64,000 nucleotides of DNA from a virus, in the IMG/VR virus record IMGVR_UViG_3300032315_001186, positions 1 to 64,000 of that record; one strand, 5' to 3'. Positions within the stretch are counted from its first letter, which is position 1. The number at the start of each line of letters is the position of its first letter. The translations under genes and the position numbers were made by a program. Below the pieces are notes generated by a model. The model ran no database searches, was not told the origin of the DNA, and was given only the letters and a program-made list of their open reading frames with translations. Below, piece by piece: positions 3,535 through 54,288 of this stretch.

Positions 3535-5197
3535 CACAACACTAGTAACAGGATTATGGAATATAAACAGAGAAAGTCTAAAAGAAGGATGGTCTAGAAG
3601 TTTTGACCACTATCTTTCGAAACTAGAACAACTATTATCAATTGAAGAAAACCTTATCATTTTCGGGGAAAAGGAACTAGAAGATTGGGTTTTAACCAAA
3701 AGGGATAGATCGAAAACTCAATTTATTGTAAGGTCTCAAGATTGGTTCAAAAATGAATTTTTTGATAAGATTCAAATTATTAGAAAAAATCCAAATTGGT
3801 ATAATCAATCAGGTTGGTTACCTGAATCTACACAAGCTCGTCTTGAAATGTATAACCCATTGGTAATGTCCAAAGTTTTTTTATTGAATGATGCTCGAAT
3901 AATGGACAGATTTAATTCAACAAATCTATTTTGGATAGACGCAGGTATAACTAATACAGTACACCCAGGTTATTTTACTCACGACAAAGTTTTAACAAAG
4001 CTAGAAAAGTTAAAAAACATAACTTTTGTCGCATTTCCATACGAAGCGAATAATGAAATTCACGGATTTGACTATTCTGAAATGTGTCGTATGACCAACA
4101 AAAAAATTGATAAAGTATGTCGTGGTGGGTTTTTTGGTGGCCCCAAAGAAAAAATAGAAAGTTTCAATTCTCTTTATTACCATCTTATGTCTGATACTTT
4201 GTCTAAGGGATATATGGGTACTGAAGAATCACTTTTTACACTTTTAACTTATATGCATCCAGAAAGTTTCCACTATTTCGAAATAGAATCTAATGGATTA
4301 ATATCTAAGTTTTTTGAAGATGTTAAAAATGATCAACACAAAATAAAAAGTGAAAGTGAAATTTTAATTTCAGGAAATGATCTAGACGTTAATAACACCG
4401 CTCTTTATGTGATAACTTTTAATAGTCCAAAACAATTTGAGACCCTCATTGAATCGATGATACAGTATGATGAAGATTTTATTCTTAAACCAAAAAAGTT
4501 TTTATTAGACAATTCAACTGATTTATCAACAACACCAAAATATCAAGCACTATGTGAAGAGTATAATTTTGAACATATTAAAAAAGATAACATCGGTATT
4601 GTTGGGGGCCGTGTATTTGTCGCCGAACATTTTGACGAATCAGGATTAGATTTTTACTACTGGTTCGAAGACGATATGGCATTCTACCCAAAAAAAGGTG
4701 AAGTGTGTAGAAATGGTTTTAATAGATTTGTTCCAAATTTATATTCAAAAACACTAAAAATAATCAAAAATGAAAACTTCGATTTTTTAAAGTTAAGTTT
4801 TACCGAATTTTACGGTTCAAATGATGTACAATTTTCTTGGTATAACATCCCCCAAGATGTTAGAATAAAGTTATTTCCTGAAAAACCATCATTACCTATT
4901 CAAGGTTTAGATCCAAATGCCCCGAGAACAAAATTTAATAACATTAAAATATATCAGGGATTACCTTATGTGGATGGTGAAATCTATTTGTCCAACTGGC
5001 CGATTGTCTTAAGTAAAACAGGTAATTATAAATGTTACTTAGAAACAAAATGGGCATTCCCATTTGAACAAACGTTAATGTCATATTGTTATCAGGAGAC
5101 GGTAAAAGGTAATATTAAACCAGGTATTTTATTATTAACTCCTACTGAGCATAACCGATTTGAATTCTATGATGCAAATTTAAGAAAAGAATGTTAA
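3527..5197 (+). CDS. HtrL-like domain fused to a GT-A type glycosyltransferase domain
   Basis: N-half TLVTGLWNI, FWIDAG, GGFFGG, GTEE; C-half YVITFN, LLDNST, WFEDD. Confidence 0.6.
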   Translation: MSNTTLVTGLWNINRESLKEGWSRSFDHYLSKLEQLLSIEENLIIFGEKELEDWVLTKRDRSKTQFIVRSQDWFKNEFFDKIQIIRKNPNWYNQSGWLPESTQARLEMYNPLVMSKVFLLNDARIMDRFNSTNLFWIDAGITNTVHPGYFTHDKVLTKLEKLKNITFVAFPYEANNEIHGFDYSEMCRMTNKKIDKVCRGGFFGGPKEKIESFNSLYYHLMSDTLSKGYMGTEESLFTLLTYMHPESFHYFEIESNGLISKFFEDVKNDQHKIKSESEILISGNDLDVNNTALYVITFNSPKQFETLIESMIQYDEDFILKPKKFLLDNSTDLSTTPKYQALCEEYNFEHIKKDNIGIVGGRVFVAEHFDESGLDFYYWFEDDMAFYPKKGEVCRNGFNRFVPNLYSKTLKIIKNENFDFLKLSFTEFYGSNDVQFSWYNIPQDVRIKLFPEKPSLPIQGLDPNAPRTKFNNIKIYQGLPYVDGEIYLSNWPIVLSKTGNYKCYLETKWAFPFEQTLMSYCYQETVKGNIKPGILLLTPTEHNRFEFYDANLRKEC

Positions 5198-5814
5198 ATT
5201 AAAATTTTGTTACTTTTTTTTAAATTTTCTTCCGCCCACAAAGGTTGTAGATTTGTATAATGACAGAGTTTATAAATTTCTTCTTCAGTATCCACTGATG
5301 ACAATGGGATTACATGATCTATATGCCAACCATATAGACCATAATTTTCCCAAGACATACCCTCAGTGAATTTTTGTTCTAAATATTCTTTTAAAAATTC
5401 TGGTGAACAACCAATAATTTCATTATGGGTTTTGTTTTTTATTAATCCTTTTAACTTCAACATATATCTAAGTCTATTACTTAATTTATGTCTTAACTTA
5501 AATAAAATGTTTTCATTATATTTTTTTTTACGACTTGATTTAACTCTTGTATTGTACTTTGTGTTTCGTTTTAAAATTTTTTCTTTATTATTTTTATAAT
5601 ATTTTGTCCTATACTCGTTCCTTTTTTTACGAGTTTTATCATACCATATTTTATATTCTTCAGGATTTAATACTCTTCTTAATTTTTCTTTTTCGGATTG
5701 ACATTTTTTACACCGACTAAGATAGTATCGTATTCCTTTGGTATTGGGTGATCTTTTATTGAATTCACAAACATCTTTTTCAAGTTTACATTTAGTACAA
5801 ATTTTTTTTTCCAT
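5194..5814 (-). CDS. HNH homing endonuclease with N-terminal CxxC zinc-binding motifs
   Basis: CTKC...CKKC; WHIDHVIP...HYTNLQPLWAEENLKKSN; antisense to flanking genes. Confidence 0.85.
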   Translation of the reverse strand: MEKKICTKCKLEKDVCEFNKRSPNTKGIRYYLSRCKKCQSEKEKLRRVLNPEEYKIWYDKTRKKRNEYRTKYYKNNKEKILKRNTKYNTRVKSSRKKKYNENILFKLRHKLSNRLRYMLKLKGLIKNKTHNEIIGCSPEFLKEYLEQKFTEGMSWENYGLYGWHIDHVIPLSSVDTEEEIYKLCHYTNLQPLWAEENLKKSNKILI

Positions 5815-5950
5815 AATGTTCTCTTAATAACTTATTTATTAATGATGATTTTTTCGTTTTATCTTTAGCCATCCTGTCAAATAATTCTCGGTCTAAACTA
5901 ATACCAAACTTGATTTTACAATCTTTTTCTTGTTTTTTTGGTCTTCCCAT
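5792..5950 (-). CDS. Small ribbon-helix-helix-like DNA-binding protein (52 aa)
   Basis: Hand translation MGRPKKQEKDCKIKFGISLDRELFDRMAKDKTKKSSLINKLLREHYGKKNLY; overlaps the HNH start. Confidence 0.65.
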   Translation of the reverse strand: MGRPKKQEKDCKIKFGISLDRELFDRMAKDKTKKSSLINKLLREHYGKKNLY

Positions 5951-49236: not shown

Positions 49237-50199
49237 ATGGAAAAGATTTTACAAGAAAATCCGAATCGTTTTGTCCTATTCCCAATCCAACATGAAGATT
49301 TGTGGAAACTCTACAAACAAGCCCAATCTTGTTTTTGGACAGCTGAAGAAATTGATCTACAACAAGATCTAACTGATTGGGAAAAATTAAATGAGGGTGA
49401 AAAATATTTTGTCAAGAATGTATTGGCGTTTTTCGCCGCCTCAGACGGGATCGTAAATGAAAACCTTGCTGAAAACTTCGTAAAAGAAGTTCAGTATACT
49501 GAAGCAAAGTTTTTTTACGGGTTTCAAATCATGATGGAAAACGTTCACTCAGAAACTTACTCTCTGTTGATTGACACCTATATCAAAGATAAAGAAGAAC
49601 AAAATATATTGTTCAATGCAATAGAAACTATTCCTGCCGTTAAGAAGAAAGCGGACTGGGCACTTAAATGGATTGGATCGTCCTCCTTTACGGAAAGGTT
49701 AATTGCCTTTGCGGCAGTAGAGGGTATATTCTTTTCTGGTTCATTTTGTTCAATCTTTTGGCTTAAAAGACGTGGATTAATGCCTGGGTTGAGTTTTTCC
49801 AATGAATTAATATCTCGGGATGAGGGACTACATACCAATTTTGCGGTTCATTTGTATCGTCATCACATCCAAGACCAACTATCAAAAGAGAGAGTTTTAG
49901 AAATTCTAACCTCAGCACTTACGATTGAAAAAGAGTTTATTACCGAATCACTTCCAGTAGATTTAATCGGAATGAACTCTAAACTAATGTGTCAGTACTT
50001 GGAGTATGTTACTGATAGACTGTTAGTTGATTTGGGTATTGGTAAAGTTTATAATTCAGAAAACCCATTTGATTTTATGCAAAATATTGCATTAGAAAAC
50101 AAAACAAACTTTTTTGAAAAACGAGTATCTGATTATTCTAAACGAGGGGTGGGGGATGTAATTGAAACCAAAGAAATAAATTTTGAAGAAGATTTTTAA
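49237..50199 (+). CDS. nrdB: Ribonucleotide reductase class Ia beta subunit
   Basis: [48 protein letters not shown]. Confidence 0.96.
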
Positions 50200-50211: not shown

Positions 50212-51402
50212 ATGGAAGTTGTAAAAAGAGACGGAACAAGAGAATATGTGAAATTTGAAAAAATTTCATCAAGAATCAAAAAGCAAACATATGGTTTGAA
50301 TGAAGATTATGTTGATTACTTTGAAGTATCAAAAAAAGTAATTGCTGGTTTATATGACGGAGTGACAACGGAGGAACTAGATCGATTGGCTGCGGAAACA
50401 TCAGCATCACTAGTAACTAATCATCCTGATTATTCTACCTTGGCGGCACGTATTGCGATTACGTCGTTGTATAAAAGAGTTGATAAAAGGTTCACGGCTA
50501 CAGCAGATAAGTTATATCATTACATCAATCCTAAAACAGGAGAGAAAGCGGGTATGATTTCAGATGAAGTGTACAAAGTAATTGTTCAACACGGAAAAGA
50601 ATTGGATGCGATGGTTGTCCATGATCGTGATTTTAATTTTGATTACTTTGGTTTCAAAACCTTAGAAAAAAGTTATCTACTTAAAATGTTTGGTGAGGTT
50701 GCAGAAACCCCCCAACATTTATACATGAGGGTTGCTGTAGGTATTTGGCTTGATAATTTGGAAATGGTACAAAAAACCTATGATATGTTATCACAAGGGT
50801 TATTTACCCATGCAACACCTACGTTATTTAATTCTGGAACCAAACGACCACAATTGAGTTCTTGTTTCTTGTTAGATATTGATGATGATTCAATTCCTGG
50901 AATTTACAAGACATTATCAGATTGTGCGGTGATATCTCAAAATGCTGGAGGTATAGGTGTAAATATTCACAAAATAAGAGCTAAAGGTGCTTATATTAAA
51001 GGAACCAATGGATCTTCAAATGGTATTATCCCTATGTTGAAGGTGTTTAATGAAACTGCCCGGTATGTTGATCAGTGTTTTGTTCCAGATACAAAAGTTA
51101 AAACAAATCTTGGTTATAAAAAAATTTCAGAGATTACTGTTGGTGATATGGTTTTGAATTCAAACGGTACTTACAATCCAGTATCAAATGTCAAGAAGTT
51201 CGAAAAGAATGAAAGAGATTTTATAACCATCAATTCTTCTATTGGTGAGAATACTGTAACACGAGGGCACCTATATCTTACAATAAAAAATGGTAAGAAA
51301 GATGAAAACTTAACATATAAAATTCAAAACAAGTTGGTAAAAGCGGAATGGGTTGAAGCTGAAAATTTGACAACTGAAGATATTTTGATTAAAATGAAAT
51401 AA
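50212..51402 (+). CDS. nrdA: Ribonucleotide reductase alpha subunit, N-terminal part (ATP cone) plus split intein N-fragment
   Basis: VVKRDG ATP cone, ATPTLFN, QLSSCF, NETARYVDQ, then CFVPDTKV intein start. Confidence 0.93.
   Translation: MEVVKRDGTREYVKFEKISSRIKKQTYGLNEDYVDYFEVSKKVIAGLYDGVTTEELDRLAAETSASLVTNHPDYSTLAARIAITSLYKRVDKRFTATADKLYHYINPKTGEKAGMISDEVYKVIVQHGKELDAMVVHDRDFNFDYFGFKTLEKSYLLKMFGEVAETPQHLYMRVAVGIWLDNLEMVQKTYDMLSQGLFTHATPTLFNSGTKRPQLSSCFLLDIDDDSIPGIYKTLSDCAVISQNAGGIGVNIHKIRAKGAYIKGTNGSSNGIIPMLKVFNETARYVDQCFVPDTKVKTNLGYKKISEITVGDMVLNSNGTYNPVSNVKKFEKNERDFITINSSIGENTVTRGHLYLTIKNGKKDENLTYKIQNKLVKAEWVEAENLTTEDILIKMK
51076..51399 (+). mobile_element. Split intein N-fragment (108 aa)
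   Basis: Block A CFVPDTKVKT..G.KKISEI.VGD.V; block B VTRGH; WVEAENL..ED. Confidence 0.88.
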
Positions 51403-51411
51403 TTTAAAACT

Positions 51412-51609
51412 ATGAAAAATACAAATATTCAATTAGACCATCAAATTTTAGATGGTGAAATCGAAAGTGAAATTGTTAATCTAAATTTAGATGAGATTGA
51501 GTTAGTAACTATAGACTCCATTCAGGAAACAAAAATAGATACTGAAGTATATGATTTGGAAATCGAGCAACTCCCAAATTATACTACAGATATAAGTTTA
51601 GTTCACAAT
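51412..51609 (+). mobile_element. Split intein C-fragment (66 aa, highly acidic), followed by Gly+1
   Basis: Block F EVYDLEIE..PNY, block G LVHN; next codon GGC. Confidence 0.88.
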
Positions 51610-54288
51610 GGCGGGGGTAGGAGAAAAGGTTCTATTGCGGTATATCTTGAACCTTGGCATGCAGATGTATTTGACTTTTTAGACCTTAGAAAAAACCATG
51701 GTAAGGAAGAAATGAGAGCTCGTGATTTGTTTTTAGCTATGTGGACACCAAACCTATTTATGGAAAGAGTTGAGAGTGATGGACTATGGTCTTTATTTTC
51801 ACCTGAGGAAGTGCCTGGTTTGATTGATGCATATGATACACCTGATTCGAAAGCTTTCACTGAGCTTTATACAAAATACGAACGGGAGGGTAGAGCCATC
51901 AAAACTATCAAAGCTCGTGAACTTTGGGAAAAGATTTTGGATTCACAAATCGAGACTGGTACTCCATATATGTTGTACAAAGATGCGGCCAACTACAAGT
52001 CTAATCAAAAAAATTTGGGTACAATCAAATCGTCAAATTTGTGTATAGCAGGAGACCAAAGGGTTGTGACTTCCCTTGGGTATTTAACTGCAAAAGAACT
52101 CAATGAAATTGGTCAAAAGTTGGAATTGTTTAACAATAAAGAAATGGTTTTATCATCTGAAATGAAGTTAAGAGCAGAACAGGAAGATGTATACAAAATC
52201 ATTTTAGAAAATGGGATGGAACATAAAGTGACACCATACCATGGTATTCCAGTTTTAAAATCTTCTCGTAAAATTGAAAGGGTTGAGTGTAAAGACTTGA
52301 GAGTAGGTGACGTGGTTATGGTACAAACGAAGAAAGGTTTATTTGGTACCAAAGAAATGATAGATGAGGCTTTTTTGTTGGGTATGTATCAATCAGATGG
52401 GACACAAAGTGAGGGATCAATTATGCTTGATTTGTGGGAAAATGATTTTGATTTAGTCGAGGATATAGAAAATAGACTTCAAAAATTGTATTCTAAATAT
52501 GAATACAAACCAAGATACTCGAACAAAGGAGGAAAATTCATAGATTGTACTGTTTCATTTTCACCTGTTAAGAAAAAGAGATTAACAACCGACTTTTTCA
52601 AAAAAACTTTCCCATTTAACAAAGGATATGTACCAAGTTGGATTTGGGAATCAAATGAAGAAACACAATGGTCATATCTAAAAGGTTTGTTCTATGCCGA
52701 TGGTTCAGTATTCGTTAGTAAATCGCGAGGTAACCCAATTCAATTGTGTTATGCCGATATAAATTTAGATTTTCTCAAAGAGCTACAACTTATTTTCAAT
52801 AATTTAGGACTTCAATCTTCCATTAGATTACTTACAAAGGGTGGGGATAGACTACTACCAAATGGTAAAGGAGGACAATCAATTTATAAAACCAAAGATT
52901 GTTATAGATTAATAATTGGAAATAAAAATGATGCTTTGATATTGAATACTAAGACTGGATTTTTAGACAGAAAAAATATTATCTTAGATGAAAAAGAATA
53001 CAGAGATAACACCAAAAAAGGTCATAAAGTTAAATCTATTGAGTATGTAGGTAAAGAGGATGTCTATTGCCCAACAATCAATAACGATGAACACCTTTTT
53101 GTTTCACAAGGAATGTTAACATACAATTGCACTGAAATTCTAGAATATACAGACAAAAACGAGATTGCGGTTTGTAATTTAGCGTCAGTAGCACTTCCTA
53201 AATTTGTGGACATTCCATCAGGAAAAGTACGTGAGAAAAACAAAAAGTTGCGGACTTACAACTTCCAAAAGTTATATGAAGTTGTTTATCAAATGACAAT
53301 TAACTTGAATCAAGTAATCGATATAAATTATTATCCTACAATAGAAACAAGAACTTCAAATTTCAAACATAGACCCATAGGACTAGGAGTGCAGGGTTTA
53401 GCGGATACTTTTGCAATGTTATCCCTACCTTTTGAAAGTCCTGAGGCTCAAAAATTGAATAGTGAAATATTTGAAACAATTTATTTTGCGGCGTTGTCAG
53501 CATCAAAAGATTTGGCAATAAAACATGGTCCATATGAAACATACGAAGGATCACCAGCATCATTTGGAAAGTTACAATTTGATTTGTGGGATGTCAGTAT
53601 GGAGAATCTTTCTGGTTTATGGGATTGGAGTACATTAAAATCTCAAATTGAAAAACATGGACTTAGAAATTCCTTACTTGTAGCTCCGATGCCTACCGCG
53701 AGTACCGCACAAATTCTTGGTAATAACGAATGTTTTGAACCTTTTACAACTAACTTATACAAAAGAAATGTATTAAGTGGTGAATTTGTAATCATCAATA
53801 AACATTTGGTTGAGGATTTGGTTAACCTTGGACTTTGGAACGATAGAATTCGATTGAAACTATTTGACGGAAATGGGTCAGTCCAAAAGATAGATGAAAT
53901 ACCATCTGAGATCAGAGAAGTTTACAAAACTGTTTGGGAAATGAAGGGTAAAACTATTTTGGATATGGCTCGAGACAGAGCAATTTTTATTGACCAATCA
54001 CAATCTCTAAATATTTTTATGCAAGATGTAACACAGTCTAAGTTATCTTCGGCACATATGTATGGATGGAAATTAGGATTGAAAACAGGAATGTATTATT
54101 TGAGAACTAAGGCTAAAGCTGCGGCGATCAAAGGATTGGGTGTTGATATGTCAGCGTTGAATACTCCAGAAATACAAGAAAGTTTCAAACCCAAACCACT
54201 CGAAAACAATAATTTGACATTGACAGAAGATATGATAAACAAAGTTTGTTCTTTAGATGATCCAAATTGTTTGACATGTAGTTCATAG
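51412..54288 (+). CDS. nrdA: Split intein C-fragment plus C-terminal part of RNR alpha, with a second internal intein
   Basis: VYDLEI...VHN|GGGRRKGSIAVYLEPWH; ETGTPY; SNL[intein]CTEI; AVCNLAS; PMPTASTAQI; KTGMYYLR; C-terminal CLTCSS. Confidence 0.93.
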   Translation: MKNTNIQLDHQILDGEIESEIVNLNLDEIELVTIDSIQETKIDTEVYDLEIEQLPNYTTDISLVHNGGGRRKGSIAVYLEPWHADVFDFLDLRKNHGKEEMRARDLFLAMWTPNLFMERVESDGLWSLFSPEEVPGLIDAYDTPDSKAFTELYTKYEREGRAIKTIKARELWEKILDSQIETGTPYMLYKDAANYKSNQKNLGTIKSSNLCIAGDQRVVTSLGYLTAKELNEIGQKLELFNNKEMVLSSEMKLRAEQEDVYKIILENGMEHKVTPYHGIPVLKSSRKIERVECKDLRVGDVVMVQTKKGLFGTKEMIDEAFLLGMYQSDGTQSEGSIMLDLWENDFDLVEDIENRLQKLYSKYEYKPRYSNKGGKFIDCTVSFSPVKKKRLTTDFFKKTFPFNKGYVPSWIWESNEETQWSYLKGLFYADGSVFVSKSRGNPIQLCYADINLDFLKELQLIFNNLGLQSSIRLLTKGGDRLLPNGKGGQSIYKTKDCYRLIIGNKNDALILNTKTGFLDRKNIILDEKEYRDNTKKGHKVKSIEYVGKEDVYCPTINNDEHLFVSQGMLTYNCTEILEYTDKNEIAVCNLASVALPKFVDIPSGKVREKNKKLRTYNFQKLYEVVYQMTINLNQVIDINYYPTIETRTSNFKHRPIGLGVQGLADTFAMLSLPFESPEAQKLNSEIFETIYFAALSASKDLAIKHGPYETYEGSPASFGKLQFDLWDVSMENLSGLWDWSTLKSQIEKHGLRNSLLVAPMPTASTAQILGNNECFEPFTTNLYKRNVLSGEFVIINKHLVEDLVNLGLWNDRIRLKLFDGNGSVQKIDEIPSEIREVYKTVWEMKGKTILDMARDRAIFIDQSQSLNIFMQDVTQSKLSSAHMYGWKLGLKTGMYYLRTKAKAAAIKGLGVDMSALNTPEIQESFKPKPLENNNLTLTEDMINKVCSLDDPNCLTCSS
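52042..53127 (+). mobile_element. Contiguous intein with LAGLIDADG endonuclease at the RNR active-site Cys (362 aa)
   Basis: SNL|CIAGDQ...VTPYH...FLLGMYQSDG...YLKGLFYADG...DVYCPT...LTYN|CTEI. Confidence 0.92.

Follow-up and report, generated by a model that had tools for sequence, protein, structure and literature searches.

How can an enzyme be obtained from a gene that is cut in two within an active-site loop by a split intein, when this intein lacks the nucleophile on which splicing is held to depend? The question is raised by nrdA, a ribonucleotide reductase (RNR) gene of the IMG/VR virus record IMGVR_UViG_3300032315_001186, of which we analyzed the first 64 kb (the window) of a 73,071-base virus contig. 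The gene is broken in loop 2 between Gln288 and Gly, a position aligned to Q288-G289 of the yeast loop 2, and its parts lie in two open reading frames (ORFs). The first (50212-51402, 396 residues) runs through ...ARYVDQ into Cys1 of an intein N-half and ends with the TAA at 51400-51402, and the second (51412-54288) opens with a 66-residue intein C-half ending in VHN, followed by GGGRRKGS. A Cys, Ser or Thr at position +1 of the C-extein is stated to be required for intein splicing (PMC2814812; PMC4031507); here, this position is Gly. The results presented below allow us to conclude that the split loop-2 intein is genuine and conserved; it is a variant of the fractured-gene split intein that has a still unexplained mechanism and lacks the +1 residue of a class 1 intein. 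The parts of the broken region are as follows:

50212..51075, plus strand: NrdA N-extein, residues 1-288, with the ATP cone, the all-alpha domain, the barrel start and Cys218 (in SSC), ending with the loop-2 Gln288.
51076..51399, plus strand: split intein N-half, 108 residues, with Cys1, the block B residues T62/H65 (TRGH) and a family insertion of ~17 residues past block B.
51400..51402, plus strand: TAA stop, the end of the N-terminal gene, present in 12/12 near-identical contigs and in an independent contig (run X3).
51403..51411, plus strand: 9-nt spacer between the halves, putatively the scar of a free-standing endonuclease gene that was lost (sister strains have a 936-nt gap; joint in run X10).
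51412..51609, plus strand: split intein C-half, 66 residues, with an N-terminal extension of ~28 residues, the block F Asp48 and the terminal His65-Asn66.
51610..51633, plus strand: C-extein start GGGRRKGS, the rest of loop 2, with Gly at +1 and an Arg at +5 that aligns with Arg293 of yeast Rnr1.
51610..52041, plus strand: first segment of the NrdA C-extein, to SSNL.

Q288 and R293 of the yeast enzyme we take to link the substrate and effector sites and to be catalytically important. The break also distributes the active-site cysteines between two chains, as the first-pass annotation of this DNA had pointed out: Cys218 is on chain 1 and the remaining ones are on chain 2.

Both halves matched the HINT/intein models, under the curated cut-offs (Hint, E 2e-6; Intein_splicing, E 6e-5). 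When the stop was read as X, AlphaFold2 with a 74-sequence alignment predicted a HINT fold (predicted local distance difference test, pLDDT, 85.8; predicted template modelling score 0.82), in which the C-half extension was poorly modelled (pLDDT ~50). This read-through model had 62 matches in the PDB at E<=0.001, all of them, among the matches listed, inteins, bacterial intein-like (BIL) domains or hedgehog domains; the top Foldseek match was BIL2, with a trivial margin over gp41-1. The class 1 catalytic set is complete apart from +1, with C1, T62 and H65 in the N-half and D48, H65 and N66 in the C-half, and Gly occupies +1 in the window, as it does in all other split C-halves seen. Nor does the intein belong to class 3, where a block F Cys replaces Cys1 as the nucleophile, for its F4 residue is Asp and Cys1 is retained. 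Thus, the naturally split intein with Gly+1 proposed by the first-pass annotation is borne out by the catalytic residues, the HINT fold and the contigs considered below. The read-through model and the analogy with known split inteins suggest that the two halves associate.

The first-pass annotation had also taken the opposite charges of the halves as a sign of evolved pairing. Its count of 16 D/E vs. 2 K in the C-half (net charge -14) and its basic N-half (+3) are correct for the window, but the net-charge complementarity is not conserved: the N/C net charges across lineages are +3/-14, +4/-13, +2/-14, 0/-9, -1/-9 and -10/-7, and two C-halves are charge-neutral. Moreover, an N-positive/C-negative polarity has been reported for gp41-1 and gp41-8 (PMC2677866), and the inference from net charge to pairing is not sustained. 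Two further traits of the halves were observed. The split C-halves share an N-terminal extension of 20-30 residues (51412-51495 in the window) with the common pattern H..DGE..E and then xLxLxxL, which is under purifying selection; the insertion of ~17 residues past block B (window ~51280-51345) is partly helical in the model and is found in Gly+1 and Ser+1 members alike.

The locus might be a sequencing error or a pseudogene, or read-through of the stop might yield a contiguous mini-intein, and the two ORFs do share one frame in the window lineage, as the first-pass annotation had stated. The related contigs clearly speak against this explanation. The same TAA was found in all 12 near-identical IMG/VR contigs (assembled contigs, not raw reads), and a contig from an independent 2017 study (run X3) crosses the TAA with the stop unchanged. 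Four of the 12 (L001-L004) have the same 9-nt spacer, and in the other eight the TAA is followed by sequence other than this spacer and the C-half: six of these carry a complete ORF of 296 residues, with the C-half 936 nt downstream, and two end too early to show the C-half. A run X10 contig has 930 additional letters at the joint between the halves, and the contigs of RNA run X15 cover extein parts only. Run X1, possibly the source of the record, was left out of the count. TAA is the commonest stop in the window, ending 21 of its 30 long open frames. In a second lineage, whose N-half is 57% identical, the halves are out of frame across a 2-nt spacer (L108, L384) or are separated by an inserted ORF (L025, L222), and in other split lineages they lie 886-985 nt apart. 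L368 and the 636-kb uncultured phage LR756504.1 likewise have complete split loci, and there are free C-halves in L120/L144, L149, P0046 and P0048, and N-halves that end their protein in 18 records (P0063-P0080) as well as P0114 and P0201. The ratio of nonsynonymous to synonymous substitutions (dN/dS) between the window and L025 is 0.11 for the N-half, 0.10 for the C-half and 0.01-0.02 for the exteins, at a dS near saturation. Taken together, the TAA in all these contigs, the out-of-frame relatives and the dN/dS values refute an artefact, a pseudogene or read-through as a general explanation, which we now regard as highly improbable. The split is genuine and ancient, and both halves are under purifying selection.

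The absence of an endonuclease gene between the halves, by which the first-pass annotation had set this locus apart from many fractured phage genes, holds for the window only, since sister strains carry an ORF there. Its 296-residue product has a match to DUF7487 (E 1e-18) and a weak one to a PHROG endonuclease (E 9e-5); a PD-(D/E)xK-like motif was recognized by eye in the ORF of this lineage (A) and of the second one (B). The sister strains hold this ORF between the halves, and we therefore regard the locus as a fractured gene after endonuclease loss; a putative free-standing endonuclease gene between the halves is absent in the window. Because two lineages each show ORF-bearing and ORF-less states, the inserted gene has been lost at least twice, and the halves were not re-fused. 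Other endonuclease-like ORFs lie between the halves in L368 and in L218 (the LR756504.1 locus). The L368 ORF has its N-terminal part in common with the A/B-lineage ORF (30% identity) and a different C-terminal domain, which is 47% identical to that of the L218 ORF, so that the genes between the halves are mosaics (L005:4366-5256, L368 ~4680-5576, L218:4447-5370).

Some observations concern these genes alone. Upstream of the endonuclease-like gene lie ATATTTAT and a ribosome site, AGGAG (L005:4326-4366; L025:1445-1487). The ATATTTAT element has 11 copies in the 73-kb genome and is possibly a phage promoter, and AGGAG is absent before nrdA and before the C-half start. Only weak hairpins (-3.4 to -3.8 kcal/mol, a value that has no shuffle control) were found in the leader of the endonuclease gene. 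Three elements share loop 2 of LR756504.1 (L218:3176-7470): the halves of a split Gly+1 intein flank a free-standing endonuclease-like gene, and a group I intron (RF00028, 60.4 bits, 5573-5852) follows. The intron lies three codons past the intein, and the C-half therefore needs RNA splicing to reach its extein.

The locus closely resembles the fractured genes of Dassa et al. 2009 (gp41-1, gp41-7, NrdA-1 to -7, NrdJ-1), which include phage RNR hosts, consist of two ORFs and have their intein halves broken at the endonuclease position (PMC2677866). There, an endonuclease gene lies between the halves in sister strains, and the endonuclease-less state of the window resembles gp41-7 (PMC2677866). 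The window shows the same two ORFs and the break at the endonuclease position, and the putative endonuclease gene, present in sister strains, has been lost from it, but of the five catalytic residues expected of such genes the +1 nucleophile is missing. There are other differences: the NrdA inteins of that set lie just before the thiyl cysteine and retain the +1 nucleophile, whereas the window intein lies in loop 2 with Gly+1; the C-halves of loop-2 split inteins have 56-68 residues vs. 33-54; and the A/B-lineage ORF has DUF7487 and the PD-(D/E)xK-like motif, while the endonucleases in that set are Vsr-like or GIY-YIG (PMC2677866).

The first-pass annotation had treated Gly+1 as a trait of the split form and had proposed a search for homologous inteins at the same Gln-Gly site. 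The search revealed a large, mostly contiguous family in which most members have Gly+1, and the trait thus belongs to the family. Scans with C-end DNA patterns gave at least 119 + 31 viral loci and 35 genome loci, together 185 among the matches listed, and 132 of these 185 have a contiguous intein of 148-488 residues between [DN]Q and Gly; the remainder are mostly short loci, split forms and a few chance matches. Contiguous members occur in many giant-virus bins, and Bacteroidota make up most genome matches. An N-junction scan blind to the C-end gave 119 loci with the C-junction visible in 72 (HN-G in 60, KN-G in 4, MN-G in 1 and HN-S in 7); among the others were two intein-less hosts with Cys at this position and one split N-half, and the rest end early. 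Both junctions were present in 45 of the best 150 representatives of a profile search (35 Gly, 10 Ser). In related phages, 56 of 79 loci are intein-less and all of these read GGG[KR]RKGS; an LAGLIDADG endonuclease was found in a contiguous relative. The family thus has the conserved host site, the intein-less alleles and the endonuclease-linked mobility of class 1 inteins. Only 2 of 50,697 GenBank phage records matched, and the Atlas yielded leads under 0.9 only.

Backbone support is weak in the quick and FastTree trees, none of which has a reliable root, and the larger family tree omits the outgroups and three long-branch rows. In these trees, the Ser+1 members (CroV type) form one group (support 99 with 7 rows, 86 with 17 rows), and the split forms occupy one side of a branch (support 46 and 88), which permits a single origin of the split form. 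A noisy FastTree, in which the C-terminus assignments are partly wrong, places the loop-2 inteins among Cys/Ser/Thr inteins and apart from two BIL-like repeats. Two further observations concern individual members. L246 and L263 are intein-less viral RNRs with a Cys right after the loop-2 Gln (VDQ-CGKRNGS), where this intein would be canonical, and the contiguous Gly+1 intein of L214, from a metagenome-assembled Saprospiraceae genome, is frameshifted in its endonuclease domain by an assembly error, as a pseudogene or as a nascent split.

The insertion site is shared with the CroV RIR1 intein (InBase; YP_003970087) and with Pandoravirus RNR inteins, which follow [DN]Q and begin with C... (PMC5784728, supplement 3); these inteins, unlike that of the window, are contiguous, and CroV has Ser+1 (PMC5784728). 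Three Pandoravirus rows of the same supplement to Green et al. 2018 have C-exteins that start with GGGKRKGAF, i.e., with Gly+1, but in the available main text 'Gly' never occurs and the missing nucleophile is not discussed (PMC5784728). The searchable literature, which excludes subscription journals and InBase, gave no account of a Gly+1 RNR intein or its split form, and neither is found in the available parts of PMC10710043 (including supplements), bioRxiv 2025.01.02.630785, PMC2814812, PMC5874633 or PMC7664689. Contiguous Gly+1 alleles (Pandoravirus) are thus already tabulated, unremarked, and we found no paper on the split form. The InBase entry 'Avin RIR1 BIL' may be this allele; no paper on it turned up.

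What, then, does the intein do without its +1 nucleophile? Residue 1 is Cys in 113 of 114 and Ser in 1 of 114 loci with an in-frame N-extein (among the matches listed to the C-end pattern), and the terminal residue is Asn in 72/72 loci found by the N-end pattern with a visible C-junction (65 Gly+1, 7 Ser+1). Of the 81 contiguous representatives with Gly+1, 79 have Thr(B7), 80 His(B10) and 80 Asp(F4), and 6/6 split pairs retain all three. Since the residues that carry out the N-S shift and Asn cyclisation are near-invariant, each end having been scored where it was not selected for, chemistry at both ends is very likely selected. A substitute nucleophile was sought and rejected: neither a downstream Ser, a Lys side chain nor a block F Cys is conserved, F4 being Asp, and at least 28 of 136 distinct contiguous inteins have Ala in place of the +8 Ser. 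All four Gly codons are used at +1, and 126 of 181 (counts largely from Gly-requiring scans) are one transition from Ser, although an AGY codon was seen in only one of seven Ser+1 members; there is thus no sign of pressure to regain the nucleophile.

The +1 residue lacks a side-chain nucleophile, and the textbook step 2, by way of a branched intermediate at +1, is therefore impossible. Both mechanisms offered by the first-pass annotation, trans-splicing onto the Gly amine and a cleavable clamp, are the right two to compare. On balance, we lean toward the former, in which the fractured nrdA is rejoined by protein trans-splicing without a +1 nucleophile, the Gly amine attacking the Gln-Cys thioester. 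The halves would associate, Cys1 would make a thioester with Gln288, and Asn cyclisation would leave the C-extein with a free N-terminal Gly, whose unhindered amine the folded RNR barrel would hold beside the thioester; aminolysis would then restore the native VDQ-GGG loop. In a variant of this pathway, the backbone nitrogen of Gly+1 would attack before Asn cleavage. Gly would offer the least hindered amine. A similar aminolytic splicing is the mechanism proposed for type A BILs (PMC4031507), which share with the window intein Cys1, the His-Asn end and the absence of a +1 nucleophile (PMC4031507; PMC7664689). BILs differ in that they lie in variable regions, are without endonucleases and mostly cleave (PMC4031507; PMC7664689). 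The window element, in contrast, is naturally split and interrupts a conserved loop in the active site of an essential enzyme, and its family has LAGLIDADG-bearing relatives and intein-less alleles and groups with canonical inteins rather than BIL repeats in the rough tree. The split loop-2 intein is thus not itself a type A BIL, but probably acts in the same way. The primary BIL papers reportedly include Dassa 2004, and an engineered split CthBIL4 is said to exist. More tentatively, the window may hold a natural split intein that ligates efficiently and tracelessly onto an N-terminal Gly without any Cys/Ser/Thr, a trans-acting member of an unrecognized mechanistic class of true, mobile inteins.

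In the clamp, the halves would join the chains, thioester hydrolysis and Asn cyclisation would cut both junctions, and the RNR would be non-covalent and nicked in loop 2. This explains the conserved Cys1/Thr/His/Asp/His/Asn equally well, cleavage dominates in BILs (PMC4031507; PMC7664689), and the common N-terminal extension of the split C-halves, being under purifying selection, could aid association. A two-chain NrdA is functional in phage Aeh1, where Crona et al. described an nrdA split by an endonuclease-linked insertion with its active-site cysteines on two chains (PMC3045599). This parallel, drawn by the first-pass annotation, is good only in part, for in Aeh1 the gene is broken at another point, between the equivalents of Cys439 and Cys462, and short non-intein tails are needed and stay attached, with no splicing chemistry (PMC3045599). 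In the window, a nick would separate Gln288 from the Arg293-equivalent of the specificity loop, and even deep lineages have the loop glycines of intein-less alleles, although these glycines were required by most scans. Ligation is preferred because the cut falls in the specificity loop, the loop is as in intein-less alleles and +1 shows no sign of reversion to Ser, and we consider the clamp, the main rival, rather unlikely. It is still less probable that processing is absent or one-sided, so that the assembled intein is never removed from one chain or from both and, like the Aeh1 tails, serves as a permanent dimerisation domain. Such an outcome would fit the block of the textbook step 2 by Gly+1 and the coupling of C-terminal cleavage to earlier steps in some inteins (PMC4031507). 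However, both ends keep almost invariant catalytic residues in a scaffold that has drifted to 20-40% identity, and the 148-488 loop-2 residues of contiguous relatives would be hard to square with an active enzyme.

Several points weigh against ligation. The likeness to intein-less loops and the codon argument are weakened by scans that required glycines. The conservation pattern is equally expected if only two cleavages are needed, and the retained Gly may reflect the RNR's own requirement alone. Residues specific to Gly+1 vs. Ser+1 members, sought as an adaptation to aminolysis, were not found, and the products of type A BILs are mostly those of cleavage (PMC4031507; PMC7664689). A second nrdA was not found in the partial 73-kb contig, and a copy elsewhere in the phage genome is possible. 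Five bacterial genomes were tested for other RNR genes. In two single-chromosome Bacteroidota assemblies, no class I/II match other than the Gly+1 nrdA was found, and no class III or monomeric class II family; since this nrdA is the only RNR gene found there, Gly+1 precursors probably yield enzyme. However, the other three genomes have a further RNR gene, and these two are metagenome-assembled, with no completeness figure given.

The rest of the RNR region is shown here:

49237..50199, plus strand: nrdB, RNR small subunit, 320 residues (Pfam Ribonuc_red_sm, E 5e-111).
52042..53127, plus strand: second intein, contiguous and canonical, 362 residues, with Cys1...Tyr-Asn, Cys+1 and a LAGLIDADG endonuclease, directly before the thiyl cysteine.
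53128..54288, plus strand: last segment of the NrdA C-extein, with the thiyl Cys (CTEI), the AVCNL cysteine and the C-terminal CLTCSS redox pair.

nrdB precedes nrdA, which is eukaryote-like, with yeast and human Rnr1 as its best solved relatives. The second intein had been missed by the first-pass annotation. It is present in the endonuclease-less L001-L004, absent in the complete endonuclease-bearing L005-L008, L011 and L012, and also found in the lineage-B protein P0036, which indicates that it moves independently. It would have to splice too, to give the thiyl cysteine its context. The window products include tail sheath, baseplate J, PolB, gp32, RecA-like and DnaB-like proteins, and the source phage is therefore a large T4-like myophage. 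No tRNA genes were found in the 64-kb window, and 14 of the 24 listed runs with at least half of the window are labelled freshwater, lake water or plain metagenome; we take the phage to be a freshwater one.

In this work, we describe a widespread family that breaks the +1 rule inside an essential enzyme. Either aminolysis can serve true inteins as a splicing reaction, or a cut specificity loop is tolerated by class Ia RNR, and either would be news. The natural split pair is small (108 + 66 residues), so that two purified chains can be mixed to test the question in vitro, the Ser+1 relatives being natural controls. If ligation onto Gly is true, the main junction constraint on protein trans-splicing would be lifted, with a possible use in protein ligation. 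In that case, phages, giant viruses and Bacteroidota would all rely on this class of inteins for the maturation of an essential enzyme, and foreign exteins might be accepted as well.

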